Assembly (NCBI GenBank): GCA_963712745.1
Contig: CAVQJC010000002.1
Span: forward strand, 128,001-192,000
Origin: an uncultured Chloroflexia bacterium
GTDB taxonomy: Bacteria; Chloroflexota; Limnocylindria; Limnocylindrales; CSP1-4
Length of the DNA: 64,000 nucleotides
Direction: 5' to 3'
In this document: positions 21,290 to 37,438 of the stretch, piece by piece
Layout of the letters: every line of letters starts with the position of its first letter
How positions within the stretch are numbered: the first letter of the stretch is position 1
Notes under the pieces: model-generated
What the model saw: the letters and a program-made list of their open reading frames with translations, nothing else
The model's database searches: none
What the model was told of the DNA's origin: nothing
Position numbers and translations under genes: made by a program

Positions 21290-22276
21290 TCAGGTCGCCG
21301 TCGACGGCATCCGGATCCACGTCTTGCCGGGCGCGTCCGCGCTCGACAGGAATGCCGCCTGTGCCTCGGCGAAGGGGTACTCGCTGCTGATGACGCGTCC
21401 GGGTGAGACCGAACCGGCATCCAGCAGGGAGGTGGTCCAGCGGAAGTCGCCGGGGTGGTCGTACGTCAACGATCCGCGCAGCACGAGCTGACGGCGGACA
21501 AGGGTCTCCGCGTTCAACTCGAACTGCCGCTTCTCCAGGCCGAGCTCCACGATGGTGGCACCGACCTCGCTGCGGCGCACCGCCTCGGCCAGCGCCTCGG
21601 GTACGCCGGTCGTGTCAACCACCAGGCCGAACTGTCGTTCGTCGTCGGGGTCCAGCTCGGTCACCCCGAGGGACCCGCCCGCGAACGCGACTCGTTCGGC
21701 GTTCGGATCGCTGACCTGGACGCGGACCCCGCGCCGCTGCAGGGCCAGGCTCATGAGCAGGCCTTGTGCGCCGACGCCCAGGACGAGGCTCTCCTGTGGC
21801 AGCTGACCTGGCAGGCGCCGGAGCGCCGTCTCGACCACGGTCAGCGGCTCGACGCAGACCAGATCCTGCGGCTCGGCAGGATCGACGGGCCACGCCCGGC
21901 TGGCCGGCACCACGACCAGCTCCGCCAGGGCCCCGGGCCAATTCATGCCGACCGAACGCCGTCGCCGGCATCCCGACGTCTGACCGCGGCGGCACTCCGC
22001 GCAATCGCCGCAGGCCACGTTCGGCTCGATGACCACCAGCTGTCCCTGGCGGCTGGGCTCGACGTCCCTTCCGACCGCCTCGATCGTGCCGAAGGCCTCG
22101 TGTCCCATGATCCAGGGGTAGTCGGGTGCCGTCCATTTGCCATGGAACACGCTCAGGTCGGACCCGCACAGTCCGACGCCGCCGACGGCGATGCGCACCT
22201 CGTCGGGCGCGACGTCGGGTACCGGCACGTCGTCGACGACGATACGACCGGGCTCGACCAGCAAAGCAGCTAACAC
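21290..22276 (-). CDS. Zinc-dependent (MDR) alcohol/polyol dehydrogenase
   Basis: GLCGSD, GHE, CGDCAECRRG..C, GVGAQG; GTG start overlaps upstream stop. Confidence 0.9.
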   Translation of the reverse strand: MLAALLVEPGRIVVDDVPVPDVAPDEVRIAVGGVGLCGSDLSVFHGKWTAPDYPWIMGHEAFGTIEAVGRDVEPSRQGQLVVIEPNVACGDCAECRRGQTSGCRRRRSVGMNWPGALAELVVVPASRAWPVDPAEPQDLVCVEPLTVVETALRRLPGQLPQESLVLGVGAQGLLMSLALQRRGVRVQVSDPNAERVAFAGGSLGVTELDPDDERQFGLVVDTTGVPEALAEAVRRSEVGATIVELGLEKRQFELNAETLVRRQLVLRGSLTYDHPGDFRWTTSLLDAGSVSPGRVISSEYPFAEAQAAFLSSADAPGKTWIRMPSTAT

Positions 22277-23334
22277 GTCACGTCCTCCCCGATGCGCGTG
22301 GGCTCCGTCCGGCCCACCGATTCCTTCGCCGGCTCCAGCAATCGGCTGGGGTTCAAGACCAACATACGGTCGAGGTCCATCCGTGACACGCCTCGCTCCA
22401 GGAGGGCCGGCAGGACCCGTCGAAACAGGTGTGCCATGTCCCAGTGCGGGGCATGCGCCGCTCGCCACGACGGCGGCGTCACATAGCTGAAGCATGCCGC
22501 GTCGTGAGAGAGGACCATCCGGTCGGCATAGCCCAGACCCGCCAGCGCCACCACGGTCGCGATGCGGGCATCGTCGCCCATCACGTGCTCCATGCCGAAG
22601 CGGTCCAAGCCGATGGTCGATCCGTTGTCCATGATGGCGCGCAAGTAGTCAAGGTCGTCGGTGTCCCCCGAATGCCCGATGATGATCCGGTCGGGGGACA
22701 CGCCCCGCGCGACGAGGAAGGACTGTTGACCGAGCCCGTTGCGCTGGCGGGCTTCCGAGTGGGTCGTGATCGGGACGCCCGTCTGTTGGTGTGCGATGGC
22801 GGCGGCAGACAGGACCCGCTCCTCGGCCGCGCTCAACACGGCGCCTGCCGACATCACCTTGATCATGCCTGCCCTGATCGTCGTGCCCCCGATGCCCTCC
22901 TCGATATCGCGCACGAATAGCTCGGTGAGCGGATCCGGCTCGTCGATCAGGCGACCCGGCCCACGGAACTCGAAGTAGAGCGGCACCCCGGCCGCGCTGT
23001 AGAGACCGGTCGAGGCGATGAGGTTGATGGCCACGCGATCAGCGACCTCCGCGACGAGGCTGACGTCCCGGCCAAGACCGACCACGGTCAGGTCGACCAC
23101 CGTCCGGACTCCGAGCCCGTGCAACGCGCTCAGCTGACGGACGGCCAGGTCGACGGCCTGGGACTCGTTCCAGCCGAGTGCGGGCATGTTGCGCTCGAGC
23201 TCCTGGTGACGCACGAAGATGTGCTCGTGGATGAGCGTGACCCCGAGCTCCCCCGCGTCCACCTCCCCGCGGAACGTGGAGACGCCACGCTGCCTCGCGC
23301 CGCCAGGCCATTCCCCGGGCGTTGCCTCTGTCAC
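22270..23334 (-). CDS. Phosphotriesterase-like lactonase family amidohydrolase
   Basis: TLIHEH, DLTVVGLGRD, MIKV, ITTH, IGH, DRFG, LSHD: metal ligands intact. Confidence 0.9.
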   Translation of the reverse strand: MTEATPGEWPGGARQRGVSTFRGEVDAGELGVTLIHEHIFVRHQELERNMPALGWNESQAVDLAVRQLSALHGLGVRTVVDLTVVGLGRDVSLVAEVADRVAINLIASTGLYSAAGVPLYFEFRGPGRLIDEPDPLTELFVRDIEEGIGGTTIRAGMIKVMSAGAVLSAAEERVLSAAAIAHQQTGVPITTHSEARQRNGLGQQSFLVARGVSPDRIIIGHSGDTDDLDYLRAIMDNGSTIGLDRFGMEHVMGDDARIATVVALAGLGYADRMVLSHDAACFSYVTPPSWRAAHAPHWDMAHLFRRVLPALLERGVSRMDLDRMLVLNPSRLLEPAKESVGRTEPTRIGEDVTC

Positions 23335-24593
23335 GGGCGGGAGTCCCTGGGTAGCGCGCTCGCGGGTGCGGCGACCGACGGCTCGGCGGTCTGAGCCTCA
23401 GCTCGCTGATCGACTCCCAGACGGGCAAGCACGGACGCGGTGTCTGCGCCCAGCGGAGGTGCCAGCGGCGGCACGTGGCCCGGCGTCCGGGAGAGCTTCG
23501 GCGTGATCCCGGGCACGAGCAGCGGTCGCTCCAGCCGTGCGTCCTCGACGGCGACGATCATCCCGCGGGCGTTGAACTGGGGATCGGCGACGATATCGGC
23601 GATGCTGTTGATCCGGCTTACCGGGATCCGCAGGGATCGGAGGGTAGCGACCACGTCCTCCGAAGGACGCGAGCGCGTCCACGACGCGATTGCCTCGTCT
23701 AGCTCCACGGATCGCCGGACCCGCCCGCGTTCGGTGCCGAGCTCCTCGTCCACTACGTAGTCGTCGCGCCCGATGGCCCTGAACAGCGCCCGGGAGAGCC
23801 GCGTGGTGTTGGCAGCGATGCACACCACGGCGCCGTCGGCACAAGGGTAGGCATTGGTCGGCGCCGAGTTGTGCGCGATGTTGCCGGTCCGTCGACGCAC
23901 GACCCCGAAGTAGCCGTACTCCGGCAGGATGGCCTCGAGCATCGAGAAGAGCGACTCGGTGAGCGCGACGTCTACGATCTGCCCCAGGCCGGAGCGCTCC
24001 CGCTCATGGAGGGCGGTGAGCGCACCGACCAGCGCGTGCAGTGAAGCGATGGAGTCGCCCAGGCTCAACCCCACGCGAGTCGGCGGTCCGTCGGGCTCAC
24101 CGGTGAGGTAGCGCAACCCCCCAGCCGCCTCTGCGATGGTGCCGAAACCGGGCTGATCGGACATCGGCCCGTCCTGCCCGTAGCCGGAGATCCGGACCAC
24201 GATGAGCCTTGGGTTCGTCTCCAGAAGATGCTTGGGGTCAAGGTTCCAGGCCTCGAGGCGTCCCGGGCGGAAGTTCTCGATGAGCACGTCGCTCTCGGCA
24301 GCGAGCCGTCGCACGAGTCGCTGGTCCTCCGGCTGGCGGAGGTCGGCGGCGACCGACCGCTTGCCACGCGACTGGACCAGATGCCACAGCGACTCCGCGT
24401 CCTTCAGTCCACGACCCCACCTGCGCAACGGATCGCCCGACGGCGGCAGCTCGATCTTGATGACCTCGGCCCCGAAGTCGGCGAACAGTCGTCCGGCGAA
24501 CGGCCCGGCGATGAGCGTGCCCAGCTCCAGCACGCGGAGGTCCGAAAGCGGACCGGGCGGCCCAAGCGGCCGAGGTTCCGTATGGTTGGACAT
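23331..24593 (-). CDS. Class III CoA-transferase (CaiB/BaiF family)
   Basis: LRVLELG..IAGP, DFGAEVIKIE..GDPLR, ENFRPG, SGYGQDGP, LGDS, GQIVDVAL. Confidence 0.94.
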   Translation of the reverse strand: MSNHTEPRPLGPPGPLSDLRVLELGTLIAGPFAGRLFADFGAEVIKIELPPSGDPLRRWGRGLKDAESLWHLVQSRGKRSVAADLRQPEDQRLVRRLAAESDVLIENFRPGRLEAWNLDPKHLLETNPRLIVVRISGYGQDGPMSDQPGFGTIAEAAGGLRYLTGEPDGPPTRVGLSLGDSIASLHALVGALTALHERERSGLGQIVDVALTESLFSMLEAILPEYGYFGVVRRRTGNIAHNSAPTNAYPCADGAVVCIAANTTRLSRALFRAIGRDDYVVDEELGTERGRVRRSVELDEAIASWTRSRPSEDVVATLRSLRIPVSRINSIADIVADPQFNARGMIVAVEDARLERPLLVPGITPKLSRTPGHVPPLAPPLGADTASVLARLGVDQRAEAQTAEPSVAAPASALPRDSRP

Positions 24594-24611
24594 GGACCCA
24601 CGTTATTGGAC
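24575..24611. promoter_or_regulatory. Pair of putative IclR boxes over the CoA-transferase promoter and start codon
   Basis: Minus strand GTCCAACCATACGGAAC (24575-91) and GTCCAATAACGTGGGTC (24595-611), 20-bp period. Confidence 0.6.
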
Positions 24612-24783
24612 GAGCGTGACCGGGTCAAGGCGGCCGTCCGCGGCCGGCGATGCTCCCCGAGCCTGGTATGGCAAGACGCTCGGTCGAGCCGCCAGGTTCG
24701 CGATCGGGCATCGATGCCGCAGGATCGAAGTCAAACGACGGCGACCGGATGGCCCAGCACTTCAGGGCCTTCGAAGAAACCGC

Positions 24784-24836
24784 TTGACCAGCGCCGTGTG
24801 TTCCGTAACATAGGCCGGTGTCCAACGTTGTGGAAC
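24784..24836 (+). promoter_or_regulatory. TRAP operon promoter with paired putative IclR boxes
   Basis: TTGACC-16-TAACAT; boxes GTTCCGTAACATAGGCC (24800-16) and GTCCAACGTTGTGGAAC (24820-36). Confidence 0.62.
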
Positions 24837-24876
24837 GATTGGGCCGGCCATAGATGGACCTAGGAGGATGTGGGAC

Positions 24877-25875
24877 ATGAATGCACGGATCCGGGCACTC
24901 GCCACCGGGATGGCGACGATGGCGCTGGTCGCCGCATATGCGCCGACGGCGGTCGGGCAGGATGCGGTCGAGTTGACCCTCGCCCATAGCTACCAGGACG
25001 CACAGCCGCAGGCGGCCTGTGGCGCGCAGGTCATCGCGGACGACGTGGCGGCAGCGGACGTCGGTCTGAACGTCGAGATCTTCGGCGCCAGCCAGCTCGG
25101 TGGCGACGCAGACCGCATCGCATCGGTCGCAGCCGGCGACATCGACATGGATATCCAGGGCGCGTCCGCCCTCAGCGCGGTCTACGCGCCGATGGGTACC
25201 GTCGACGGCGCCTTCGTCTTCGACGACTACGAGCATCTCAAGCGATTCTTCAAGGACCCGGCGTCCCAGCCGCTCAAGGATGGCTTCCTCGAGGCCTCGG
25301 GCGTTCGTGTCCTCGGTGCCTGGGCTGCCGGCGCTCGCCAGTTCACCGCCAACAAGCCGATCCGCACACCGGAGGATCTGGAGGGCCTGCGCATGCGCTT
25401 CCCGCCGTCCCCGCAGTTCGTGATGAACGCGGAGGCGATGGGCGCCATCCCGACCACGGTCGCCTACGAGGAGCTCTATCTCGCGCTCTCGCAAGGCACG
25501 GTCGACGGACAGGAGAATCCGGTCGTCAACATCGCATCGATCAACCTCGATGAGGTGCAGGACGTCATCAGCCTGTCGAGCCACCAGATGAGCTCGAACC
25601 TCGTCGTCATCAACGAGGAGAAGTGGCAGTCGCTCAGTGAGGAGCAGCAGACGGCCCTTCAGGCCGCCGTCGAAGACGCCATGGACCAGGTCCCCGAGTG
25701 TGACGCCGAGTTCACCGAGATGCAGCTGAACGAGTGGCGCGAGAGCGGCGACATGCAAGTCGTCGAAGACGTCGATCGCGAGGCCTTCCGGGCCAAGGCG
25801 GAGCCCTACCTCCGCGAGCACTTCAGCCCCGAGCAGGTCGTGGTGCTTGACGCCATCCGCTCGGTCGCGGAATAG
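24877..25875 (+). CDS. dctP: TRAP transporter substrate-binding protein
   Basis: Signal peptide; SQLGGD, GARQFT..KPIRTPEDLEGLRMR, ELYLALSQGTVDGQENP. Confidence 0.94.
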   Translation: MNARIRALATGMATMALVAAYAPTAVGQDAVELTLAHSYQDAQPQAACGAQVIADDVAAADVGLNVEIFGASQLGGDADRIASVAAGDIDMDIQGASALSAVYAPMGTVDGAFVFDDYEHLKRFFKDPASQPLKDGFLEASGVRVLGAWAAGARQFTANKPIRTPEDLEGLRMRFPPSPQFVMNAEAMGAIPTTVAYEELYLALSQGTVDGQENPVVNIASINLDEVQDVISLSSHQMSSNLVVINEEKWQSLSEEQQTALQAAVEDAMDQVPECDAEFTEMQLNEWRESGDMQVVEDVDREAFRAKAEPYLREHFSPEQVVVLDAIRSVAE

Positions 25876-25926
25876 TCTCTCGCTGACGTATCGCCCCGGC
25901 GTAGGCTAGTGGCCGGGGCGCTCTGT

Positions 25927-25962
25927 GCACAAGGCCTCGCGAAGGTTCGCGAGGCCTTGTGC
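25927..25962 (+). other. Strong intercistronic hairpin after dctP (mRNA stabiliser or partial terminator)
   Basis: Perfect 17-bp inverted repeat GCACAAGGCCTCGCGAA / TTCGCGAGGCCTTGTGC. Confidence 0.7.
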
Positions 25963-25982
25963 GATACGGTGAGGAGGGCAGG

Positions 25983-26612
25983 ATGAGCGTGGGCGGCGAG
26001 CAGCCCGTGAGTGGCAGCGTGCCACCGACGGACCCGCCGGCCGAGCCGGACGAGACGCCGGCCGCCGAGCCGACGCTGGGCGGCGAAGTTGGTGCCGAGC
26101 TCCTGCCGGAACGAGGTCCGCTCCGAACGTTCCTCAAGACCGTGGGCGTGATCGAGCAGGCTGTCGGGACGTCGCTCATCTTCGTCATCCTCGTGCTCGT
26201 CCTGGTCCAGGTCGCTGGACGCTATCTGCCCTCGTTCGCCGGCTGGCCAGGGACTGGCGAGATCGCCCGCCTCTCGCTGGTCTGGTGCACGTTCATCCTT
26301 TCCGGCTACCTCATGGCGCAGGATCGGCACATCACCATCAGGGCCATCGACTTCGTCGTCAGCGGGCGTGCCCTTGATGCCCTCAAGCTCATGGTCCACG
26401 TAGTGGTAGCCGTTACCTGCATCGCCATGGCGTACGCCACGTATCGGCTCATCGCCGATGACATCGGCCAGCGGACACCTGAGGCGAATCTGCCGCTTGC
26501 CTGGGTCTACCTGGTGCCGTTCGTCGGCTTCGTGCTCACGGCCCTCCGCGCCGGGTTGGCCATCGGCCTGGTCGACGTCCCGGGGCTGGCTGGCCGGAGG
26601 AAGTCGCCGTGA
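25983..26612 (+). CDS. dctQ: TRAP transporter small permease
   Basis: QVAGRY, EIARLSLVW, HI.I motif, four TM segments. Confidence 0.9.
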   Translation: MSVGGEQPVSGSVPPTDPPAEPDETPAAEPTLGGEVGAELLPERGPLRTFLKTVGVIEQAVGTSLIFVILVLVLVQVAGRYLPSFAGWPGTGEIARLSLVWCTFILSGYLMAQDRHITIRAIDFVVSGRALDALKLMVHVVVAVTCIAMAYATYRLIADDIGQRTPEANLPLAWVYLVPFVGFVLTALRAGLAIGLVDVPGLAGRRKSP

Positions 26613-27885
26613 GCCTGCTCTTGATGCTGGTGCTCATCGTGGCGCTCTTCCTGTTGCGTGTGCCGATGGCCTTCGCCATCCTGGGACCGTGCCTTGCCTA
26701 CCTCGTCATCGAGGGCTACTCGCTCGGGCTGGCGGTGAGGCTCGTCATCGACGGCATCGACAGCTGGCCGCTACTGGCCGTCCCCCTGTTCATCCTCGTA
26801 GGAGTCACCGCGACCCGGACCGAGACCGCCGACCGCCTGTACGACGCGGCGCTGGCGCTGCTCGGGCCCCTTCGGGCCGGACTCGCCTACGTCAATATCG
26901 GGGTCAGCCTGGGGTTCTCGTGGATGAGTGGGGCGGCCCTCGCGGATGCCGCGGGCATCGGCTCGATCGCCGTCGTCCAGATGAAGCGAAAGGGCTACCC
27001 GGAAGGCTTCTCCGTGGGGCTCAGCGGGAGCTCCGCCCTGATCAGCCCGATCATGCCCCCCAGCATCCCCGCCGTGATCTACGCGTCGGTCGCGGCCGTG
27101 TCGACGGGCGCGCTCTTCATCGCCGCCATCGTCCCGGCCATCCTGATGACGCTCACCCTGGCCGCCACCGTCTACCTGTGGGCACGCCGCCGGCCCCAGT
27201 TCGTCGGCGAGCGCCACGACTGGAGCAATGTCCGACGCACCGGCCTCCGCGCGCTGCCGCCGATGGGCGCACCCGTACTGATCCTCGGAGGATCCTCGGC
27301 GGCTTCTTCACGCCGACCGAGGCAGCGGCAGTGGGCGCCATCTACATGTTGGGCCTGGCTCTCACCTACCGGTCCGTTAGCCGCCGCGAGTACGTGCTCA
27401 TCTTCCGCGACACATCGCTGGTCAGCGCACAGATCATGCTGATCATCGGGGCATCCTCGTTGCTGAGCTGGATCCTGGCCAGGGAGCAGGTCCCGCAGAC
27501 CATCGCCGAGGCGCTCCCCGGGCTCACCGACCAACCCGCAGTCTTCCTCTTGATCATCATCGTCGTGCTCATCGGGCTGGGCATGATCCTGGAACCGACC
27601 TCGGCGTTGCTGATCGTCACGCCCATCCTGCTGCCGGTCGCCATCGAGTACGGGATCGATCCGCTGCAGTTCGGGTCGATCGTCATCCTCTGCCTCATGA
27701 TCGGCCTGCTGACGCCACCGATGGGTGGCGTCTGCTTCGTTCTCAGCTCGGTGACCGGCATCCCGCTGGAGCGCGTCTTCCGGGGCGTGGTGCCATTCTT
27801 CCCCGCCCTGGCCGTCACACTGCTCCTGGTGGCGTACGTCCCGGCAGTCACCCTCTGGTTGCCCGGCCTGCTGGGCATGCTGTGA
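26609..27885 (+). CDS. dctM: TRAP transporter large permease; frameshift at ~27290
   Basis: LLAVPLFIL, SGAALADAA, IMPPSIP, then FTPTEAAA, TPPMG in the second frame. Confidence 0.92.
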
Positions 27886-28120
27886 CAGCCGGTAGGTCGG
27901 AGGTGACACGGCCACGGCCCTGACTGGCGGATCGCGTCGCGGACGTGCTCGGCCCGACGCCGTCACATCTCACCCGGACAAGCGTGAGATCGGCCCTCCT
28001 GTCTGCCCGGTCCGTCTAGGATGAGCCGAATGGAGACCACGTTGGGAGCGGTGGGCGGACGTCGGCGAGATCTCGATCCAAGGCCTCGCGCTCTGGGCCT
28101 GCCCGATCCGGAGGGGCAAG

Positions 28121-29158
28121 ATGAGTGAGCTCCGTATCGCGGTGGTCGGCGCCGGCCTCATCGGGCGGCAGCACATCCTGCGCGTCGATAGCGAGCCGGG
28201 CGCTGCCCTCGCGGCGGTCGTCGATCCGGCAGAGGCGGCCAGGGAGCTCGCGGGGGCACTCGGGACCGAGTGGTTTCCCGATCTGGCCGCGATGTTGCAG
28301 GGCGAGCGGCCGGACGCGGTGATCATCGCCACCCCGAACCAGCTGCACGTGGCCCAGGGCCTCGAGGCAGTCGCCGCAGGGCTGCCCATGCTGCTCGAGA
28401 AACCGCTGGCTGAGGATGTCGCGTCGGGGCGGCGGCTGGTCGAGGCTGCCGAAGCCGCCGATGTGCCGCTGCTGGTGGGCCACCACCGACGGCACAACCC
28501 CCTGGTCCAGCAAGCGAAGGAGATCATCGCCTCGGGGCGGCTCGGTCGGATCGCGACCGTCAACGCGCTGGCCTGGTTCTTCAAGCCGGACGACTACTTC
28601 GACGTCGCCTGGCGGCACGAGCCGGGCGGCGGACCGATCCTCATCAACCTCATCCACGTCGTCGACGATCTGCGCAACCTCTGCGGGGAGATCGACGAGG
28701 TCCAGGCCGTCGAGTCCAACGCCATGCGGCTCTATCCGGTCGAGGACACGGCCGCGGCGCTCTTCAGGTTCGAGAACGGTGCCCTCGGGACGATCTCGGT
28801 CTCGGACACCGTAGTCGCGCCGTGGAGCTGGGAGCTGACCACGGGCGAGAACCCGGCGTTCCCCGAGACCGCCGAGTCCTGCTACTTGATCGGCGGCACC
28901 GAGGGTTCGTTGAGCTTCCCCAGCCTGGACGTGTGGCTCTACCAGGGCGAGAGGAGCTGGCAGGCGCCGATCGATCGCCGGGCGCAGTCGGTTGCCCCGA
29001 GGGAGGACACGCTGGCCCTGCAGCTGCGTCACTTCTGCCGCGTCGTACGGGGCCACGAGCCGCCGCTGGTCGATGGCAATGAGGCGCTGCGGACCCTTGA
29101 AGTGAGCCTCGCGGTCAAGGCCGCCGCGACGGGCGGTGGAGCGGTCAGGCAGGGCTGA
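28121..29158 (+). CDS. Gfo/Idh/MocA family oxidoreductase
   Basis: VGAGLIG, ATPNQLH, LEKP, GHHRRH, INLIHVVD. Confidence 0.92.
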   Translation: MSELRIAVVGAGLIGRQHILRVDSEPGAALAAVVDPAEAARELAGALGTEWFPDLAAMLQGERPDAVIIATPNQLHVAQGLEAVAAGLPMLLEKPLAEDVASGRRLVEAAEAADVPLLVGHHRRHNPLVQQAKEIIASGRLGRIATVNALAWFFKPDDYFDVAWRHEPGGGPILINLIHVVDDLRNLCGEIDEVQAVESNAMRLYPVEDTAAALFRFENGALGTISVSDTVVAPWSWELTTGENPAFPETAESCYLIGGTEGSLSFPSLDVWLYQGERSWQAPIDRRAQSVAPREDTLALQLRHFCRVVRGHEPPLVDGNEALRTLEVSLAVKAAATGGGAVRQG

Positions 29159-29239
29159 GTGGTCCCAGAACTCGGGCGGCTGGGGAGGTTGCCGTACCCT
29201 TGCGACCCGACGGTCGTCACCAGCGGGCCCTGGTGGTTC

Positions 29240-29983
29240 TCAGTCGCCTCGGCGCAACAGCCCACTGACCTGGGCCGCAGAACGCTCGAGCGGCATGCGC
29301 ATCTCCAGGAGTCGCCGCCGGCTGAGGCGAATGGTGGGCCCGGAGATGCACAGCGCGGCGACGACCCGCTCGGTCGAATCGGTGACCGTCGAGGCGATCG
29401 CCGCCACGCCATCCTGGCGCTCCCCGATGGAGACCGACCAGCGATCCGAGCGGATCTGCTCGAGCTGACGCGCGAGGTCAGCGCCTGGGGCATTGGGCAG
29501 CGTCTCGCCATCAGCTCGAGCCCGACGTAGCTCACGTCGTCGAACGTCGTCGTCGGCAAAGGCCAGCAGCACCTTTCCTGCAGCCCCGACGCGGAGCGGC
29601 AGCGGCCGCCCAAGCTGGATGAACGGCCGGAGCTCATGCCTGGCCTCCACGGCAGCGATGCATACGCGAGTGTCGGCATCCCGGATGTAGAGGTGGACGC
29701 TCTCGCCGATCTCGTCACGGAGCCTGCGCATCGGGGGTTCCGCCAGCGCTCGCAGGTCGAACGTCTTCGCCGCGGCCTCACCCCAGTAGAGGAGCCGGGG
29801 CCCGAGTGAATACCGGCTGTCCGGCGTGCGGCGTACGATCCCGAGAGCCGCGAGCTCGCTCAGCAGCCGGTGCGTGGAAGACTTGGGCATGGCCAGGGCC
29901 GAGCGCACGTGAGACAAGGTGACCGGTTCGCCAGCCTGGCCGAGGAAGTCGATGAGGTCGCTTGCTTTCTCCAGAACGGACAT
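29240..29983 (-). CDS. IclR family transcriptional regulator
   Basis: SVLEKA, MPKSSTHRLL HTH, GESVHL, GAAGKVLLA, ALCISGP. Confidence 0.94.
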   Translation of the reverse strand: MSVLEKASDLIDFLGQAGEPVTLSHVRSALAMPKSSTHRLLSELAALGIVRRTPDSRYSLGPRLLYWGEAAAKTFDLRALAEPPMRRLRDEIGESVHLYIRDADTRVCIAAVEARHELRPFIQLGRPLPLRVGAAGKVLLAFADDDVRRRELRRARADGETLPNAPGADLARQLEQIRSDRWSVSIGERQDGVAAIASTVTDSTERVVAALCISGPTIRLSRRRLLEMRMPLERSAAQVSGLLRRGD

Positions 29984-30077
29984 CTTCGCCTCACGGGATC
30001 TTGCTGGCGTTAGCCTACTGCGTGGGGTCGAGCGGGGCCGTGGAAGACGACCGCGAGCGCGGCCCGGTCCGGGCCGG

Positions 30078-31502
30078 TCAGTCGACTGCGGTCCCGTAGT
30101 ACTCGCCGAATAGCTCCTCTTCACTGGGCCGGTCCTCGGCGATGGGCCGGCTGACCCACGTGACGTTCATGTAGTGCTTGAGATGGATGTTCTCTGAGGT
30201 GATGTTGCCACCCCACGTGCCGCAGCCGAGGCTGGAGGTCATGGGCATTCCGTTGTCGAAGGCGCCAGCGTTCGCCTTCGACTGCGGCTGACGCACCATG
30301 ATCCGGCTGACTGGTGCCATCCGGGCAAGCCGATCGATGTGCCCGTCATCGAACGAGTAGATGCCGCACGAGTGGCCCTTGCCACCGACCTCGTAGATGG
30401 CCTTCACCTTCTCGAGCGCCTCGTCGAACCCTGAGTAGCGGAACATCGAGACGACGACACTGAGCTTCTCCGAGCTGAACGGGTGGTGAGGGCCGATCTC
30501 CGTCTGCTCGACGAGAAAGAACCTGCGATCGGGAGCGACTCCGAATCCCGCCTTGGCGGCGATCGCCCCGGCTGAGATGGCGATGGTGTCCGCCGTCCGC
30601 CGTCCCTCCTCATCCCAGAGGGCAGACCTGAGCAGCGCCGTCTCTTCTGGGCTCGCGAGATGGGCGCCCTCCTCCACGAGCTTCGCCCGAAGCGCTTCGT
30701 AGATCGAGTCCTCGACCACGAGGTTCCCGTCGGCGGAGCAGCCCGAGCCAAAGTCAGACGTCTTGCTGATCCGGGTGTTGCGGGCGGCTTCAGCCACGTC
30801 CGCTGTCTCGTCGATGACCATCGTGGAGTTGCCGGCGCCGACGCCGTAGGCCGGTGTTCCCGACGAGTAGGCAGCCTTGACCATATCCAGGCCACCGGTG
30901 GCCTGGACGAGGTCGGCCTGGGTCATCAGGTACTGAGCAGCGGGGATGCTCGGCCGGGGCAGACATTGCAGCAAGTCGGGCGGTGCACCCTCGCGAGCCA
31001 GTGCACGTCGCATGATCTCGACAGTCTCGAGGGTCGTCCGCTTGCTGCGCGGGTGCGGCGAGAACACGACAGCGTCGCCACACTTGATGGCGAACATGCC
31101 CACGCCGGGCGGTGTGAGCTCGGGGTTCGTGGTGGGGACGAGCGACGCGATCAGGCCCACCGGCTTGGCATACTTGACGATGCCCTTCTCGGGGACCTCC
31201 TCGATGACGCCGATGCTCGGCTGGCGGAGCACATCTCGAAGGATGCCCATGACCTTGAACCGCTTGCCGACACGCGTCTCGGGGTCGCCGATCCCGCTCT
31301 CCTCGACGCCCATGAGTGCGAGCCGCTTGAAGGTCGTCTCGTTCGCCACCGCCCAGGCGACCGCCTGGCACAGTCGGTCGACTTGCGCCTGGGTGACGCC
31401 CTCGAACTCGCGCATCACAGCCCGTCCTCGGGCCACGAGCTCATCGACGGCTGCCGTCTCCTGCGGGGTGATCGGTCGCGTGGCCATACGGTCCTCCGAC
31501 AT
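30078..31502 (-). CDS. CoA-acylating aldehyde dehydrogenase (EutE/SucD/SauS-like family)
   Basis: KPVGLIASLVPTTNP, SPHP, ATGG..MVKAAYSSGTPAYGVGAGN, SKTSDFG.GC, EKLS, SLGCGTWGGN. Confidence 0.9.
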   Translation of the reverse strand: MSEDRMATRPITPQETAAVDELVARGRAVMREFEGVTQAQVDRLCQAVAWAVANETTFKRLALMGVEESGIGDPETRVGKRFKVMGILRDVLRQPSIGVIEEVPEKGIVKYAKPVGLIASLVPTTNPELTPPGVGMFAIKCGDAVVFSPHPRSKRTTLETVEIMRRALAREGAPPDLLQCLPRPSIPAAQYLMTQADLVQATGGLDMVKAAYSSGTPAYGVGAGNSTMVIDETADVAEAARNTRISKTSDFGSGCSADGNLVVEDSIYEALRAKLVEEGAHLASPEETALLRSALWDEEGRRTADTIAISAGAIAAKAGFGVAPDRRFFLVEQTEIGPHHPFSSEKLSVVVSMFRYSGFDEALEKVKAIYEVGGKGHSCGIYSFDDGHIDRLARMAPVSRIMVRQPQSKANAGAFDNGMPMTSSLGCGTWGGNITSENIHLKHYMNVTWVSRPIAEDRPSEEELFGEYYGTAVD

Positions 31503-31520
31503 CGCGAGAGAAGAGTGAAC

Positions 31521-31558
31521 GTTCCGAATCGTTAGGTTCGCGTCCCAGTATTATGTAC
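31521..31558. promoter_or_regulatory. Weaker pair of putative IclR boxes upstream of the aldehyde dehydrogenase gene
   Basis: GTTCCGAATCGTTAGGT (31521-37) and GTCCCAGTATTATGTAC (31542-58). Confidence 0.4.
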
Positions 31559-31614
31559 CCCACGACAACATCTCGACGGGGCTCGTATCGTCTGGGTCGC
31601 AGCTCGGCGCTCAC

Positions 31615-31682
31615 TTGACACAGCCTCGTCAGCGCACTAGGTTTTCCCACAGATATGGGACAGGGTCCCGATATGTGGGACC
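31615..31682 (+). promoter_or_regulatory. Promoter of the ThDP-enzyme operon with paired palindromic operators
   Basis: TTGACA-17-TAGGTT, followed by TCCCACAGATATGGGA (31645-60) and GGTCCCGATATGTGGGACC (31664-82). Confidence 0.72.
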
Positions 31683-31725
31683 AGGAGGGTACGATGCGCG
31701 AGCCACGATTGGCTTCGACCCGCAG

Positions 31726-33438
31726 ATGACGATGAAGCCGTCTGTCGCTGACCACGTGGCCGGGTTCCTCTCTGACCGCGGCGTCGAGCTGATCTTCGGC
31801 TTGTGCGGCCACACGAACATCTCGTTGCTTGCCGCGCTGGAGCGGCGCGGGGCGCCACGGTTCGTGACTGCTCGCCATGAGCAGGTCGCGGCCCACGCCG
31901 CTGATGGATACGCGCGCACGTCCGGCCGGCCGGGAGTCATCCTTCTGCATGTGGGTCCCGGAATGACCAATGCTGTGACCGGGGTCGCGACTGCGGCGTT
32001 CGACTCGGTCCCGCTGCTGGTGATCGCCGGTGACGTGCCCTCGTATTACGAAGGCCGCGGGCCGCACCAGGAGTTCAATCTCCGCCGCGACGCCGATCAG
32101 ATCTCGATCTACGAACCGTTCGTCAAGCGCGCCTGGCGAGTCCGGCGAGCGGATCAGGTACCCCGCGTCCTGGCACGGGCCTGGGACACCGCTCTGGCCG
32201 GCAGGCCCGGACCCGTCATCGTCTCCATCCCGATGGACATCCTGGGTGAGGTGCTCGACGCCGAGATCACTCCCGCTTCGCCGGTCGCCAAGCCGGCGTT
32301 GAGCGGCGATACCGCCGCGGCCATCGCACAGGAGCTGCGGCAAGCCACGCGCCCGCTGCTGCTGGCGGGCGGTGGCACACGACGCGCTACGAATGAGCTC
32401 CGTCGACTGGCCGAACTCAGCGGCGCGCCGGTCGCCCACACGCTGATGGGGACCGGTGTCCTGCCGCCGGACCATCCGCAGCTCGTCGGGGTGGTGGGCT
32501 TCTGGGGCTCGCCTGTGGCGAACCGGCTGGCCTCCGAGGCCGACCTCATCGTGGCCATCGGAACGCGGTTCCCCGAGACGGACAGCAGCAGTTGGGAGCA
32601 GGGCGTGACGTTCCGCATCCCGCCGACACGGCTGATCCATGTCGACATCGATCCGCTCGAGCCCGGCCGCAACTACCCCACGGCCATCGCCGCCACGGCC
32701 GATGCGAGTCTCGCCCTCACGGCCATCAGCGATGCCTACGGCCATGCGACGGCGACCCGGGGTCATGACTGGGACACGCTGCGCGAGGAGCGTGAGGCCT
32801 TCCTCGCTGCCAGCCGCGCCAACGCCAGCTCGACCGAGGTTCCGTTGCTACCAGAGCGAATCCTCGCAGACGTTCGGAAGGCCGCCCCCGACGCCATCCT
32901 GGTGACGGATGTGGGGTGGAACAAGAACGGTGTCGCGCAGCAGTATCCCGTCGACACGCCGGACTCGTTCCTGACGCCGGGCGGCTTCTCGACCATGGGC
33001 TTCGGCCCGGCGGCCGTGCTTGGAGTCGCCGCCGCTGGAACCTCGCGTCCCGCCATCGCCCTGGTCGGGGACGGAGCGTTCGGGGCGAATCCGAACGTGG
33101 TGGCGACCGCGGTCGAGATGGGCATCGCCCCCATCTGGCTGGTCATGAACAACTCCGCGTTCGGGACGATCGCCGGCCTCGAGCGGAAACACTACGGTTC
33201 CGGCTACGGCTGCGAGTTCGAGTGCGCTGGTGCACCGTACTCACCGGATTTCGCGGCCATGGCTCGGGCCTGCGGCGCCGACGGCATCCGCATCGAGCGT
33301 GCGGAGCAGCTCGATCCGAGCCTGCGCGAGGCGATCGCGTCGGAGCGCCCAACACTCCTCGACGTGCCCATGCGGAACACCCCCGTCGTGACCCCTGGCG
33401 CGTGGGACATCGAGCGCATCTACCACGTGGCCCAGTGA
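31726..33438 (+). CDS. Thiamine-diphosphate-dependent enzyme (acetolactate-synthase-like; probable 2-oxo-acid decarboxylase)
   Basis: FGLCGHTN, RHEQ..AHAADGYAR, GPG.TNA, TDVGWN, GDGAF...NN ThDP motif. Confidence 0.92.
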   Translation: MTMKPSVADHVAGFLSDRGVELIFGLCGHTNISLLAALERRGAPRFVTARHEQVAAHAADGYARTSGRPGVILLHVGPGMTNAVTGVATAAFDSVPLLVIAGDVPSYYEGRGPHQEFNLRRDADQISIYEPFVKRAWRVRRADQVPRVLARAWDTALAGRPGPVIVSIPMDILGEVLDAEITPASPVAKPALSGDTAAAIAQELRQATRPLLLAGGGTRRATNELRRLAELSGAPVAHTLMGTGVLPPDHPQLVGVVGFWGSPVANRLASEADLIVAIGTRFPETDSSSWEQGVTFRIPPTRLIHVDIDPLEPGRNYPTAIAATADASLALTAISDAYGHATATRGHDWDTLREEREAFLAASRANASSTEVPLLPERILADVRKAAPDAILVTDVGWNKNGVAQQYPVDTPDSFLTPGGFSTMGFGPAAVLGVAAAGTSRPAIALVGDGAFGANPNVVATAVEMGIAPIWLVMNNSAFGTIAGLERKHYGSGYGCEFECAGAPYSPDFAAMARACGADGIRIERAEQLDPSLREAIASERPTLLDVPMRNTPVVTPGAWDIERIYHVAQ

Positions 33439-33487
33439 CGTCCGATACCGACGACTGCCACCGAATACCCGCTGCGGGAGGGCGAGG

Positions 33488-34303
33488 GTGACGAAGGTCC
33501 ACGAGGGCCAGGGAGCTGGCCAGGCATCCAGGCCCGCGGCCTGGGCTACCAGCGTGACCGCGACGACGGACAGACAGGTCTTTGTCCGGGGCACGGCCCT
33601 CGATGAAGCGATCGGCACGACATCGTTCCCCGCCATGCTCCTGAGACTCTGGCGTGGGGACGAACCGACGGAGGCCGAATCGGAGCTCATGGGTGCGTGC
33701 CTGATCGCGGCCATCGACCATGGGCCGCTCGCCCCTTCGGCCATGGTGGCCCGGACAATCGCCTCGACACACGCCACGCAGATGAGTGCCCTCGCGGGCG
33801 GCATCCTCTCGTTCGGCGAGCTGCATGGAGCTGTCGTCGGTCGAGCGATGCAGATCCTGAAGACCGTGCCGCCGGACGGCGACCTTGAACGGTGGGCAAA
33901 CGCGACATTCCAGGCGGAACGTGACGCCGGACGCCGATTGCCGGGCATCGGTCACCGCTGGCACGCCAAGGACCTTCGAGCCGAGCGACTGCTCGAGGTC
34001 GCGACGCCCCTTTCCGACGGCCGGCATGCAGCAGCAGTGCGAGCACTTGCCGACTGCGTCGGCCGTCACGCTGGCCGGACGGTGGCAGTCAACATCGACG
34101 GCGCGCTGGCCGTCGCGCTGACCGCCCTCCGGCTGAACCCAGAGTATGGCGATTTCGCGTTCGCGATCGCCCGAAGCTGTGGCCTGGCTGCCCACATCGT
34201 CGAGGAGCGGACCCGGGAACGACCGATGCGCATGATCGACCCGACCGCGGTGTCCTACGACGGTGTCCGTGTTCCAGGCCCTACGGAGGAGACCGAGACA
34301 TGA
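33488..34303 (+). CDS. Citryl-CoA lyase-like protein (citrate synthase superfamily, small form)
   Basis: DHG..APS..AR, HGA, PGIGHR.H..D.RA, NIDGA, AR..GLAAH..EE. Confidence 0.88.
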   Translation: MTKVHEGQGAGQASRPAAWATSVTATTDRQVFVRGTALDEAIGTTSFPAMLLRLWRGDEPTEAESELMGACLIAAIDHGPLAPSAMVARTIASTHATQMSALAGGILSFGELHGAVVGRAMQILKTVPPDGDLERWANATFQAERDAGRRLPGIGHRWHAKDLRAERLLEVATPLSDGRHAAAVRALADCVGRHAGRTVAVNIDGALAVALTALRLNPEYGDFAFAIARSCGLAAHIVEERTRERPMRMIDPTAVSYDGVRVPGPTEETET

Positions 34304-34671
34304 AGGTACGACTGATCTCGCCATTCGAGGACGCCGAGCAGATCTGGATCGGACTGGATGAGCCAGGCATGCGCCGAAAGGTATTCCGGTTCGTGTCACC
34401 CGAAACCGGATCCGAGGAGTTCATGGCCGGCATCACCATCTTCGAACCGGGGGAAGCGAGCTCCTACCATGTGCACCCCGAATCAGAGGAGATCAACCTG
34501 GTCCTCGCCGGATCGGGCATCGTGGTCTCGGAAGGCGAGGAGGCTCCGTTCGGTCCGGGCCACGCGATGTGGGTCCCCAAGGGCGTGCACCACCAGCACA
34601 AGAACACGGGGAACGAACCGCTCAAGCTGCTCTGGGTCTACACGCCACAGGCCGCACTTCCGACCTCATAG
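34300..34671 (+). CDS. Cupin domain protein
   Basis: PG....HVH..SEE, WVPKGVHHQHKNTG. Confidence 0.9.
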   Translation: MKVRLISPFEDAEQIWIGLDEPGMRRKVFRFVSPETGSEEFMAGITIFEPGEASSYHVHPESEEINLVLAGSGIVVSEGEEAPFGPGHAMWVPKGVHHQHKNTGNEPLKLLWVYTPQAALPTS

Positions 34672-34871
34672 TCCTCCTCGCCACGTCGCCGCCCCCGTTT
34701 GAGCGGCGGCGGCGGCGTGGAGCGGGCACCTGATGGGCGCGTCGCTCGAGCCCAGGGACCTCTGGACCCGTCCTTCGCGGCCGAACAGGCCAGGCGCCCC
34801 CACAACGGGCGAGCGGCGTGGGGCTGGTGTTCGGACTCCCTGGTGAACGATCGACACGGAGGCAGGCATCA

Positions 34872-35813
34872 GTGACCGGCCCTGCGACGGGGATCAAGAT
34901 CGGAGTGCTCGCCTGGAACCAGTACACGGACTGGCCAAGCCTGCGCGAGCTCGGTAAGCGGGCGGACGGACTCGGCTACGACTCGCTGTGGACGTTGGAC
35001 CACCTCTACCCCATCACCGGCGGCCCCATGGGCCCGATGCTGGAGGGCCACATGATCCTCGCTGGCTGGAGTCAGCACACCACGCGCGCGACGGTCGGGC
35101 TGATGGTCGGTGCCAACACGTTCCGCAACCCGGGCCTCGTGGTCAAGATGATCACGATGCTGGATCATCTCTCCGATGGTCGCGCCGTGCTCGGACTGGG
35201 GGCCGCCTGGGACGCGACCGAGCATGAGGCCTTCGGCATCGGGTTCGGACATAGCGTCGGTGAGCGCATCGACTGGCTCGACGAGTCGGTCGAGATCATG
35301 CGGAACATGCTGCGCGGGGGCGTGGCCACGGCTCGCGGGAAGCGCTACCGGGCCCGAGACGCACGCAATGTTCCCGCGCCTATCCAGCCGCATCTGCCCG
35401 TCCTTATCGGTGGGGTGGGTGAAAGAAGGACGCTGCGGACCGTGGCCCGTTTCGCGGACGCGTGGAACGTAGCCAACGTGACGCCAGAAGAGGCTGCCGC
35501 CAAGGATGTGGTCCTGCGCCGTTGGTGTGATGAGTCTGGTCGCGACCCCGACGAGATCGAACGCACCGCCAGCCTTGGACCGATGCTCATCCGTGACAAC
35601 CCAGTGGATGCACAGCGGGCGATCGCCAGGGTTCATGTGTCCAACCCCGGGATGGATCGCAGGATCACCATCGGGTCGGTCGGTGAGATCACCGAGATCT
35701 GTGGTCGCTACGCTGCCAGGGGCTTCCGGCACCTCATCTTCCACGCACCGGCTCCGTACGACGAGGAGACCCTCATGCGCTTCGCGTTGGAGGTCAAGCC
35801 GCAGTTCGCCTGA
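34872..35813 (+). CDS. LLM class (possibly F420-dependent) oxidoreductase
   Basis: GYDSLWTLDHL, FRNPG, DHLSDGR..LGLGAAW..EH.AFG, LIGG.GE.RTL..VARFAD.WN. Confidence 0.9.
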   Translation: MTGPATGIKIGVLAWNQYTDWPSLRELGKRADGLGYDSLWTLDHLYPITGGPMGPMLEGHMILAGWSQHTTRATVGLMVGANTFRNPGLVVKMITMLDHLSDGRAVLGLGAAWDATEHEAFGIGFGHSVGERIDWLDESVEIMRNMLRGGVATARGKRYRARDARNVPAPIQPHLPVLIGGVGERRTLRTVARFADAWNVANVTPEEAAAKDVVLRRWCDESGRDPDEIERTASLGPMLIRDNPVDAQRAIARVHVSNPGMDRRITIGSVGEITEICGRYAARGFRHLIFHAPAPYDEETLMRFALEVKPQFA

Positions 35814-36996: not shown

Positions 36997-37400
36997 CAGG
37001 CGCGTGGCCGCGCGTGCTCGCGCATGAAGGCCGCGATCTCCCCGATGGCCGTGCCCGGCCCGAAGACCGCAGCCACGCCGGCCTCCTTCAGAACCGGGAT
37101 GTCTTCCTCCGGGATGATCCCGCCGGCCGTCACGAGCACGTCGGCCATGCCCTCGTCACGGAGCATCTGGCAGATCCGGGGCAGCAGGGTCAGATGCGCG
37201 CCGGAGAGGATGGAGAGCCCGACCACGTCGACATCCTCCTGCAGCGCGGCCGTGGCGACCATCTCCGGCGTCTGCCGCAGGCCGGTGTAGACCACCTCGA
37301 AGCCCTCGTCACGCAGGCCACGCGCGAGCACCTTGGCGCCCCGGTCGTGGCCGTCGAGGCCAGGCTTGGCGATGAGCACCTTCAGCGGTCGGTCGGTCAT
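36996..37400 (-). CDS. Cobalamin-binding subunit of an acyl-CoA mutase
   Basis: [31 protein letters not shown]. Confidence 0.95.
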
Positions 37401-37438
37401 GGCCGTGATCGTAACGCTCCCCGTCGCCGATGGGGCAC

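Follow-up and report, generated by a model that had tools for sequence, protein, structure and literature searches.

Gene content and layout of the block

The DNA considered here, referred to below as the window, is a 64,000-nucleotide stretch (about 69% G+C) of a contig assembled from an uncultured bacterium of the class Limnocylindria (Chloroflexota). Between positions 21290 and 35813 it carries a block of fourteen genes coding for a transporter, a regulator and a set of enzymes. The block is built from known enzyme families and matches no named pathway. Tentatively, and at somewhat less than even confidence, we read it as a system that would open the ring of quinate-type acids by a route ending in acetyl-CoA. 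A preliminary description of this DNA had presented the locus as an IclR-associated catabolic cluster, and each gene that it named was found in place by open reading frame (ORF) listing and by Pfam and NCBIfam scans:

21290-22495, minus strand: zinc-dependent alcohol dehydrogenase (Zn-ADH), polyol/cyclitol-dehydrogenase-like (Pfam ADH_N and ADH_zinc_N)
22270-23334, minus strand: phosphotriesterase-family lactonase of the phosphotriesterase-like lactonase (PLL) type (Pfam PTE, 257.3 bits)
23331-24593, minus strand: class III (CaiB/BaiF) CoA-transferase, CoAT3 (Pfam CoA_transf_3, 394 bits)
24575-24836: divergent CoAT3/DctP promoter region with two GTYCC-N8-GGAC sites (24575-24591, plus strand; 24820-24836, minus strand)
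24868-25875, plus strand: solute-binding protein DctP of a tripartite ATP-independent periplasmic (TRAP) transporter (Pfam DctP, 219 bits; TIGR00787, 189 bits, above its cut-off)
25959-26612, plus strand: TRAP small membrane subunit DctQ (Pfam DctQ)
26609-27885, plus strand: TRAP large membrane subunit DctM (two Pfam halves in different frames)
28121-29158, plus strand: Gfo/Idh/MocA dehydrogenase (Gfo; Pfam), an accessory gene of this locus
29240-30124, minus strand: IclR-family regulator, overlapping the end of the next gene (Pfam HTH_IclR and IclR_C)
30078-31502, minus strand: CoA-acylating aldehyde dehydrogenase (ALDH) of the SauS/SucD/EutE type (NCBIfam, PDB relatives)
31503-31731: divergent ALDH/ThDP promoter region (TTGACA box at about 31606; inverted operator copies at 31645-31681)
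31732-33438, plus strand: thiamine diphosphate (ThDP)-dependent enzyme of the acetolactate-synthase-like group, 568 residues (three TPP_enzyme Pfam domains)
33488-34303, plus strand: short citrate-synthase-like protein of the citryl-CoA-lyase type (Ccl), 271 residues (C-terminal part of Pfam Citrate_synt)
34300-34671, plus strand: small metal-binding cupin, 123 residues, its start overlapping the Ccl stop (Pfam Cupin_2)
34818-35813, plus strand: F420-type luciferase-like oxidoreductase (LLM), inside the inserted block and outside the conserved set (Pfam Bac_luciferase)

Two of the gene starts differ from the ends of the longest ORF. The Zn-ADH ORF runs 226 nt into the lactonase gene and alignments with its family begin only near residue 72-85, on which grounds the true start probably lies near 22280-22300. 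The long ORF of the ThDP enzyme opens with a TTG at 31615. Its true start is the ATG at 31732, since the 568-residue orthologues, which begin with MKPSVADHV, start at the equivalent residue and the window matches them from this codon. An 11-codon mini-ORF (31694-31729) lies behind a GGAGG just upstream; its TGA overlaps an in-frame ATG at 31726, six bases before the ThDP start. Translational coupling or a leader function is possible, and conservation of the mini-ORF is not obvious in the aligned relatives.

The two frames of dctM result from the absence of one G after position 27289, within a run of Gs, seen as a 1-nt gap against the related locus L025. Contigs from two public runs belonging to different studies (X1 and X2) carry the extra G and are otherwise the same as the window over 560-600 nt, which identifies the frameshift as an error of assembly, not the mark of a pseudogene. 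DctP, DctQ and DctM are thus all intact and adjacent, and DctP is a lipoprotein-type binding protein in the relatives. Breaks of this sort are typical of long-read homopolymer miscalls, and tblastn shows many comparable ones in three related loci from metagenome-assembled genomes (MAGs; L012, L021 and L023).

Conservation among Limnocylindria

Metagenomes are rich in close homologues of both Ccl (70-89% identity) and the ThDP enzyme (78-91%); the few named ones come from Limnocylindria. A scan of species-representative genomes with Ccl gave 13 loci, all in Chloroflexota MAGs, which were analysed by tblastn with the window proteins together with three further genomes. The whole set of PLL lactonase, Zn-ADH, DctPQM, IclR, ALDH, ThDP enzyme, Ccl and cupin is present in 12 of the 13 scan loci and in all three added genomes; the thirteenth scan locus is a 7.3-kb contig with Ccl and the cupin only. 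The co-occurrence in other genomes on which the preliminary description had made its proposal depend is thus borne out. CoAT3 was found in all seven loci that extend past the lactonase, the sequence of the remaining eight ending at the lactonase. Relative to the window, identities in the related loci amount to 81-86% for the ALDH, 74-81% for the ThDP enzyme, 80-92% for the cupin and 68-77% for Ccl; the IclR regulator (69-83%), the lactonase (55-64%) and Zn-ADH (50-63%) are each found in 15 of 15. The genes form three sub-blocks (CoAT3-PLL-ZnADH, DctPQM-IclR, and ALDH divergent from ThDP-Ccl-cupin) that occur in three different orders across the loci, an indication that co-location has been under selection. 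Chance falls far short of explaining the grouping.

Membership of the set is narrower than first listed. Eleven or twelve of the 14 genes are conserved; a relative of Gfo occurs in one related locus of 15 (L025, 49%) and LLM in none, suggesting that both are local additions. LLM itself scores 218 bits with TIGR03560, against a cut-off of 231, and has its nearest paralogue (68%) on contig C6 of the same assembly. A second IclR gene lies beside the ALDH gene in 12 of the 15 relatives. The spread of the block is patchy: a Ccl orthologue is found in 17 of 401 sampled genomes of the class. Family f1 accounts for 3 of these (137 genomes sampled) and family f4 for 13 (153 sampled).

In family f4 (L011:12760-20024), genes of branched-chain amino acid metabolism come after the block, namely those for an aconitase-family protein, IlvD and a true acetolactate synthase (ALS) paralogue. 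The ALS paralogues in L011 and L013 are 33-34% identical to the ThDP enzyme of the cluster; they serve as an outgroup from which it can be seen that the cluster enzyme is not the housekeeping one.

The enzymes and their families

All the enzymes of the block stay below the curated cut-offs of the characterised NCBIfam families, and no named pathway was matched in the searches; the authors of the preliminary description, who recognised none, appear to have been right. For the ALDH the best model is SauS (477.8 bits against a cut-off of 600; the G522 orthologue described below scores 479.9). It falls in the acylating branch with SauS, SucD, the AdhE N-domain and EutE, and in the PDB it is related to acetylating and succinate-semialdehyde (acylating) dehydrogenases. 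The top model for the ThDP enzyme is that of ALS, TIGR00118 (360.2 bits against 538.35), other ALS models also staying below cut-off; the nearest relatives of the enzyme are acetolactate synthases, glyoxylate carboligase and 2-oxo-acid decarboxylases. Its top PDB match is BbmA, for which the part of the literature covered by our search gave no function. CoAT3 is nearest to succinyl-CoA:mesaconate and succinate-glutarate CoA-transferases (247 bits against 700 and 750). Zn-ADH finds YdjJ-type dehydrogenases, the scyllo-inosose 3-dehydrogenase IolM (130.6 bits against 450) and threonine/idonate dehydrogenases, all far below their cut-offs, and the best model for Gfo is IolG (134.3 bits against 355). 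The lactonase is a full-length phosphotriesterase TIM barrel (PF02126 positions 1-298 of 298), whose best solved relative is a mycobacterial PLL deposited as "phosphotriesterase homology protein" (4if2, 275 bits). The cupin shows the metal-binding HxHx4E...H motif in alignments; a PDB search gave it no close solved relative, and its similarity to dioxygenases is only faint. A PDB search with DctP found no close ligand-defined structure, the best chains being of SiaP type (130 bits).

Ccl repays a closer look. It matches positions 146-355 of the 357 in PF00285, that is, the C-terminal citrate-synthase domain only, and its 271 residues fall within the 260-280 expected of a protein of this type. 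The best NCBIfam model is a citryl-CoA lyase subfamily (PRK06224 group; 153.8 bits against 212), with others below cut-off as well, and residues 18-259 align with the Hydrogenobacter citryl-CoA lyase (PDB 6hxp, 128 bits). A search of the protein Atlas returned only clusters labelled "putative citrate synthase". In six sequences spanning 31-100% identity, the motifs lHG (H113), DHG (H78), GHR..D.R (H156, R164), NxD (D204) and R229..H236..E239 are invariant, and they align with those of 6hxp and of citrate synthases. By equivalence with the residue numbers of the pig enzyme, these motifs would carry the catalytic His/His/Asp triad and the oxaloacetate-binding His and Arg. Because the citrate-synthase motifs are invariant, the bond that Ccl makes or breaks should be one that joins acetyl-CoA to a 2-oxo-carboxylate, and the protein probably cleaves a citrate-like CoA ester. 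The action on a 3-hydroxy-3-carboxyacyl-CoA attributed to it in the preliminary description is likewise the most plausible reading of these motifs.

Regulation

The regulator has both domains of its family, HTH_IclR and IclR_C. The ALDH/ThDP intergenic region contains a TTGACA box followed by inverted copies of GTCCC-ATAT-GGGAC type, including the palindrome GTCCCGATATGTGGGAC at 31665-31681. When 16 orthologous ALDH/ThDP regions were aligned, the same -35 box and paired GTTCC...GGAC sites were seen on both sides, and equivalent sites with TTGACC or TTGACA boxes are kept upstream of dctP and CoAT3 in the relatives. In the window, GTYCC-N8-GGAC is found at 24575, 24820 and 31665 only, in each case within one of the two divergent promoter regions; the count of 4 matches against 2.4 expected is not significant as a number. 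Of 31 sites counted in the 15 relatives, 26 lie within the three promoter regions, although these make up 4.6% of the sequence. Since the pattern was derived from the same sequences, this enrichment is descriptive. The distribution supports the view that the block is IclR-controlled through a putative operator shared by the target promoters, and it agrees with the earlier suggestion of one motif common to the operons.

Distant versions of the cluster

A phylum-wide search with Ccl, covering 401 genomes, added just two short Ccl-like genes, one from G522 and the other from G637. The G522 locus (51% G+C) has, in one direction, genes for the ThDP enzyme (54% identity to the window), an ABC transporter, the cupin (55%) and Zn-ADH (35%). 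The opposite direction is occupied by a tight operon, IclR-Ccl(37%)-ALDH(70%)-aroQ, the last gene coding for a type II dehydroquinase, with gaps of 9-22 bp. In G637 (44% G+C) the ALDH gene (61%) is divergent from aroD (type I dehydroquinase), chorismate synthase, a xylose-isomerase-like TIM barrel and the ThDP enzyme (49%). About 8 kb away is a second group, FAD oxidoreductase-Ccl(33%)-shikimate dehydrogenase (aroE)-DinB-5-enolpyruvylshikimate-3-phosphate synthase (aroA), adjoining a gene for a transporter of the major facilitator superfamily. A third genome, G382, has just a CoAT3 (65%)-Ccl (49%) pair, the two genes being adjacent.

An orthologue of CoAT3 is absent genome-wide from G522 and G637, where the best class III enzymes (30% and 37%) are located elsewhere. 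As judged from these arrangements, the core would consist of the ThDP enzyme, ALDH and Ccl, joined by Zn-ADH and, in most cases, the cupin. That the first three are retained without CoAT3 in both genomes suggests that the ALDH makes the CoA ester cleaved by Ccl; on present sequence evidence, a supply of CoA ester from ALDH to Ccl is the most likely arrangement. The transferase could then be a second way into the same lyase, the G382 pair pointing to a transferase-to-lyase route by itself.

Some side observations concern G637, which is 97% complete. The place of the cupin is taken there by the TIM-barrel protein, a single observation. Its aroD, aroC, aroE and aroA products score above the NCBIfam cut-offs and are interleaved in the operons (L038:7908-14283 and L031:7273-13424); neither 3-deoxy-D-arabino-heptulosonate 7-phosphate (DAHP) synthase (PF00793) nor 3-dehydroquinate (DHQ) synthase was found in this genome. 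Either a ring acid is salvaged for biosynthesis in G637 or the aro enzymes are used catabolically. Two other genomes returned by a phylum-wide search with ALDH (G631 and G533, 44-46%) were treated as unrelated systems, having only a ThDP paralogue of 27-32% identity, no Ccl and no aro neighbours.

Link to dehydroquinate and shikimate genes

In the window itself, a complete, translationally coupled aro supraoperon (12288-21283) lies directly upstream of the block:

12288-13745: DAHP synthase-chorismate mutase
13742-15085: aroA
15082-16362: aroC
16359-17140: aroE
17137-18756: aroK-aroB fusion
18790-19191, plus strand: aroQ, type II 3-dehydroquinate dehydratase (Pfam DHquinase_II, TIGR01088)
ending at 21283: trpE and trpG

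The core is repeatedly tied to enzymes handling 3-dehydroquinate and shikimate. All seven cluster genomes that have aroQ (G000, G221, G239, G117, G143, G327 and G522) carry it within 15 kb of Ccl, and in G221 and G239 it sits beside the Zn-ADH end of the block, apart from aroKB. The aroQ product encoded at 18790-19191 may possibly act as a feeder enzyme of the system, its membership being uncertain.

Chorismate synthase was not found in five cluster genomes of family f4 that are 85-90% complete (G216, G120, G126, G365 and G275). DHQ synthase was not found in the first four, nor DAHP synthase in the first two, and those of the five that were searched for a dehydroquinase showed none. The five organisms may be aromatic amino acid auxotrophs. 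Every version of the cluster comes with transporters and with IclR or LysR regulators. The existence of cluster genomes lacking the shikimate pathway indicates that the block is not biosynthetic and acts on an imported compound.

A proposed ring-opening route for quinate

Quinate is a cyclohexane whose C1 bears a hydroxyl and a carboxyl group between two CH2 groups and which has three further ring hydroxyls. In 3-dehydroquinate the C3 ketone lies beside the C4 hydroxyl, a type of bond that ThDP enzymes cleave; IolD and cyclohexane-1,2-dione hydrolase are ThDP enzymes that do so. Homocitrate-type acids lactonise easily, and gamma- and delta-hydroxyacyl-CoAs lose their CoA through lactonisation. 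On this chemistry and on the gene neighbourhoods above we base the following proposal, in which the substrate, every reaction and the order of the reactions are given as they might be.

The putatively IclR-repressed block would import a hydroxylated carboxylic acid through the TRAP system, with quinate the likeliest substrate and shikimate another wherever a dehydroquinase is at hand. Zn-ADH, helped in the window by the extra Gfo, would act on the ring hydroxyls, their oxidation yielding 3-dehydroquinate and perhaps also the vicinal 3,4-diketone, which could arise by further oxidation or by an IolE-like dehydration of 3-dehydroquinate. The ThDP enzyme might then cut the C3-C4 bond of the alpha-hydroxyketone or diketone in the manner of IolD. 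The product would be OHC-CH2-C(OH)(COOH)-CH2-CHX-COOH, with X standing for H or OH, a semialdehyde of the homocitrate or 4-hydroxy-homocitrate type that keeps the C(OH)(COOH) carbon of quinate between its two CH2 groups. The acylating ALDH would convert the aldehyde to a homocitryl-type CoA thioester, which Ccl would split into acetyl-CoA and 2-oxoglutarate or 4-hydroxy-2-oxoglutarate (carbon count, 7 = 2 + 5). A relative of citrate synthase would be needed because C1 of quinate is a tertiary carbinol. The lactonase and CoAT3 might provide a side entry or salvage, the lactone being hydrolysed and the free triacid re-activated to the same CoA ester. The cupin could be a metal enzyme, an isomerase or a dehydratase, acting at the ring or the open-chain stage. 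The dehydroquinase and shikimate dehydrogenase partners would be accounted for, since through them shikimate could enter by way of 3-dehydroshikimate and 3-dehydroquinate.

Features of the enzymes speak for this route as well. The nearest ALDH models act on anionic semialdehydes, Ccl retains the full complement of citrate-synthase motifs for a 2-oxo-dicarboxylate, and Zn-ADH and Gfo score best, if weakly, with the cyclitol dehydrogenases IolM and IolG. A literature search, as far as its sources could be seen, returned no paper on this gene set or on a ThDP- and CoA-dependent quinate route. In its full form the proposal is an oxygen-independent, non-aromatising pathway for quinate and shikimate that proceeds via 3-dehydroquinate and a homocitrate-type CoA ester, with a salvage branch and a dedicated TRAP transporter and IclR regulator in Limnocylindria. 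We hold this full version to be possible, with a confidence that stays well short of even.

If the proposal is true, a ring-opening route made of ThDP enzyme, ALDH and lyase would be new central carbon-cycle biochemistry. It would supply first functions for three groups annotated by similarity, the ALS-like, SauS-like and short citrate-synthase proteins, and would account for the food source of uncultured Limnocylindria in estuary and sediment. Should the substrate differ, the block still represents an orphan pathway, well delimited and strongly conserved, for which the regulator and a putative operator are defined.

A number of points weigh against quinate. Gene neighbourhood and chemical logic are what suggest this substrate, and the conserved set contains neither an AroE/YdiB-type quinate dehydrogenase nor an IolE-type dehydratase. 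The highest scores of the ThDP enzyme are with models of acetolactate synthases and 2-oxo-acid decarboxylases; IolD is not among the best 25 of 51 ThDP models of NCBIfam, and no cyclohexanedione hydrolase is among its PDB matches at E<=1e-40. The nearest solved relative of the lactonase belongs to the PLL group, which we take to be known for hydrophobic lactones. DctP has no close relative of known ligand, and the cupin no definite step in the route. The genomic link has its own weak side. The neighbouring aroQ is the sole dehydroquinase found in G117, G221, G239 and G522, making it a housekeeping copy as well, so that its position could be coincidence. No aroQ at all is present in 10 of the 13 family-f4 cluster genomes, and aro genes are missing from the surroundings of the G216 locus. 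A single inherited arrangement may account for the adjacency within Limnocylindria. There are just three independent contexts: the Limnocylindria type, G522 and G637.

Other explanations

The preliminary description had arranged the enzymes differently, as a closed CoA-recycling loop fed by the import of a 2-substituted malate, for instance homocitrate or the lactone of homocitrate. CoAT3 would activate the acid, Ccl cleave it, the ThDP enzyme decarboxylate the resulting 2-oxo acid, and the ALDH turn the aldehyde into the CoA donor for the next round. The main strength of this scheme is the ThDP enzyme, which is closest to decarboxylating ALS-like enzymes and is more of a decarboxylase or carboligase than an IolD. 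It also agrees with the proximity of the ALDH to SauS and SucD types and of CoAT3 to succinyl-CoA-dependent transferases, with the intact motifs of Ccl, and with the lone CoAT3 (65%)-Ccl (49%) pair of G382, from which it follows that coupling of transferase and lyase exists. However, the loop cannot close in G522 and G637, which keep the ThDP enzyme, ALDH and Ccl in genomes devoid of a CoAT3 orthologue. Neither the universally conserved Zn-ADH nor the cupin has a task in it, and the dehydroquinase and shikimate-gene operon partners stay unexplained; moreover, a product of the 2-oxoglutarate type would need no private decarboxylase route. We consider the loop unlikely, the evidence favouring a position of the ThDP enzyme and ALDH before the lyase, not after it, and a ring acid as substrate. 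The conversion of homocitrate to 2-oxoglutarate, offered as an example, may be near the truth, while nothing speaks in favour of free environmental homocitrate as the substrate. The oxaloacetate-binding motifs of citrate synthase, every one of which Ccl retains, would also agree with a lower pathway for the ring-fission products of aromatics or pyrones. Here Zn-ADH and the lactonase would act like LigC and LigI (lactol to lactone to acid), the ThDP enzyme would decarboxylate a 4-carboxy-4-hydroxy-2-oxo acid to "citrate semialdehyde", and the ALDH would form citryl-CoA, to be cleaved to acetyl-CoA and oxaloacetate. This gives each enzyme its most canonical chemistry. The lactonase presumably shares the amidohydrolase superfamily, and Gfo presumably the family of LigC, and 3-dehydroshikimate, the product of dehydroquinase, is a known precursor of protocatechuate and gallate. 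Set against this, the Pfam matches of the block include no ring-cleaving dioxygenase, dehydroshikimate dehydratase or oxalomesaconate hydratase family, the small cupin is only faintly dioxygenase-like, and Gfo is not conserved. Such a pathway strikes us as decidedly improbable.

The aro neighbours might, on the other hand, be accidental and the substrate some other hydroxy acid: a 2-keto-3-deoxy sugar acid, a deoxy-aldonate, pantoate, a mevalonate-type acid or a C2/C3 sulfonate. The weak similarity of DctP to sialic-acid and sugar-acid binding proteins, its closest matches, the resemblance of Zn-ADH to polyol dehydrogenases and the best ALDH model, that of the sulfoacetaldehyde dehydrogenase SauS, all lean this way, as does the presence of the block in many f4 genomes without aro genes in the genome. 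Chance is nevertheless hard to credit when the genes are mixed in operons with aroQ (G522) and with aroD and aroE (G637) in two lineages that are 33-38% identical in Ccl, and for deoxy-sugar acids the conserved arginines of Ccl point instead to a carboxylated carbonyl product. A substrate from this group is doubtful. The sulfonate in particular was rejected: the ThDP enzyme scores 257.7 bits against the Xsc cut-off of 620, the ALDH stays below that of SauS, and no sulfite-handling family is among the Pfam matches of the block. The enzymes could also be imagined to run in reverse as a biosynthetic route to 3-dehydroquinate, Ccl condensing, ALDH reducing and the ThDP enzyme closing the ring. An intramolecular ThDP acyloin condensation would give the alpha-hydroxyketone of 3-dehydroquinate, and G637, with aroD, aroC, aroE and aroA and with no DAHP synthase (PF00793) or DHQ synthase found, might make use of it. 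Five genomes with the block lack chorismate synthase, though, and several lack other aro genes; uptake systems and catabolic-type regulators accompany every version, and the organism of the window has a complete canonical aro operon beside the block. We regard this direction as extremely improbable and rejected it on account of the cluster genomes without chorismate synthase.

Comparison with known systems

A close parallel to the proposed ring-opening route is myo-inositol catabolism, which employs IolG, IolE, IolD, IolB and IolA. There, too, a Gfo- or Zn-ADH-type dehydrogenase oxidises a cyclitol, a ThDP enzyme breaks the carbon ring beside a carbonyl group, an enzyme of the cupin fold works on the open chain, and a CoA-acylating aldehyde dehydrogenase yields an acyl-CoA. 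Unlike the Iol proteins, those of the block fall below the Iol cut-offs (IolG, IolM), IolD is not among the best 25 models, and the block has no IolE-type TIM barrel, IolC kinase or IolJ aldolase (no AP_endonuc_2, PfkB or aldolase Pfam matches). It would cut the chain with a citrate-synthase-like acyl-CoA lyase in place of an aldolase, and its transporter implies a carboxylate. With the citryl-CoA lyase of Hydrogenobacter thermophilus (6hxp) and the corresponding module of ATP-citrate lyase, Ccl shares the length of about 270 residues, the restriction to the C-terminal part, and the His/His/Asp and Arg motifs. The similarity is modest (128 bits to 6hxp) and below the NCBIfam cut-offs; the partner in the block is an acylating ALDH and/or a class III CoA-transferase and not a citryl-CoA synthetase, and the setting is catabolic and not that of the reductive tricarboxylic acid cycle.

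Classical use of quinate and shikimate leads through qsu or qui genes to protocatechuate, and the type II dehydroquinase QsuC of Corynebacterium glutamicum is possibly shared with biosynthesis. An uptake system, a dehydrogenase and a type II dehydroquinase possibly serving biosynthesis too are points in common. The classical route differs in that no AroE/YdiB-type or pyrroloquinoline-quinone-dependent quinate dehydrogenase, dehydroshikimate dehydratase or pca family is among the Pfam matches in 21290-35813, aroE and aroQ being found in the window only in the neighbouring biosynthetic operon, and in that the route proposed here would form no aromatic ring and need no oxygenase. The sulfoacetate pathway of Cupriavidus necator (SauRSTU with Xsc) likewise combines an IclR-type regulator, an acylating aldehyde dehydrogenase and a ThDP enzyme. 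It is set apart by the scores of the ALDH (477.8 against 600) and of the ThDP enzyme (257.7 against 620 for Xsc) and by the absence from the block of a CoA ligase, phosphotransacetylase or sulfite exporter; a Ccl-like lyase, for its part, fits nowhere into the sulfoacetate route.

Of the soluble plant acids entering soil and sediment, quinate and shikimate rank with the most abundant, and the sole established bacterial route for them, to our knowledge, passes through the aromatic protocatechuate and requires oxygenases. DNA nearly identical to the window was found in estuary and sediment metagenome runs, with contigs identical to it from three DNA runs. A metatranscriptome run (X6) yielded contigs identical to parts of CoAT3, the start of dctP, dctM, Gfo, IclR, ALDH and the ThDP gene; this is a weak hint that the block is expressed, as DNA can occur in such libraries.

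Boundaries of the block and the assembly

The assembly is a MAG in 20 contigs, 84.6% complete with 5% contamination. Another contig, C1, holds (479986-497310) a second, syntenic housekeeping copy of the flanking genes: GDH, DAHP synthase, aroA, aroC, aroE, aroKB, aroQ, trpE, trpG, meaB and folE. Its counterpart in the window spans 6000-21283 and 36001-39573, and the proteins are 44-87% identical. The distance between trpG and meaB is 1.3 kb in C1 and 14.7 kb in the window, where it is occupied by the block at 21290-35813; sequence comparison found no similarity between the C1 spacer and the block. Since C1 keeps trpG-meaB without the block, the coordinates of the latter are those of an exact insertion/deletion unit relative to C1. 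Insertion by a mobile element was considered and given little weight, as integrase and transposase families are not among the Pfam matches of the block or its flanks and the C1 spacer is unlike the block.

The occurrence of two diverged housekeeping copies in one assembly suggests that C2, the 234-kb contig on which the window lies (some 5% of the assembly), stems from another organism related to the first. A foreign origin would account for the finding of a Ccl orthologue in none of 24 genomes of the same genus, and it bears on any claim about which genus carries the block. Directly downstream of the block (36001-37580) lie genes for MeaB, a GTPase, and for a protein with a B12-binding domain, which probably belong to an acyl-CoA mutase system. 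A 517-residue ORF (37439-38992) gave no Pfam match in the frame tested.

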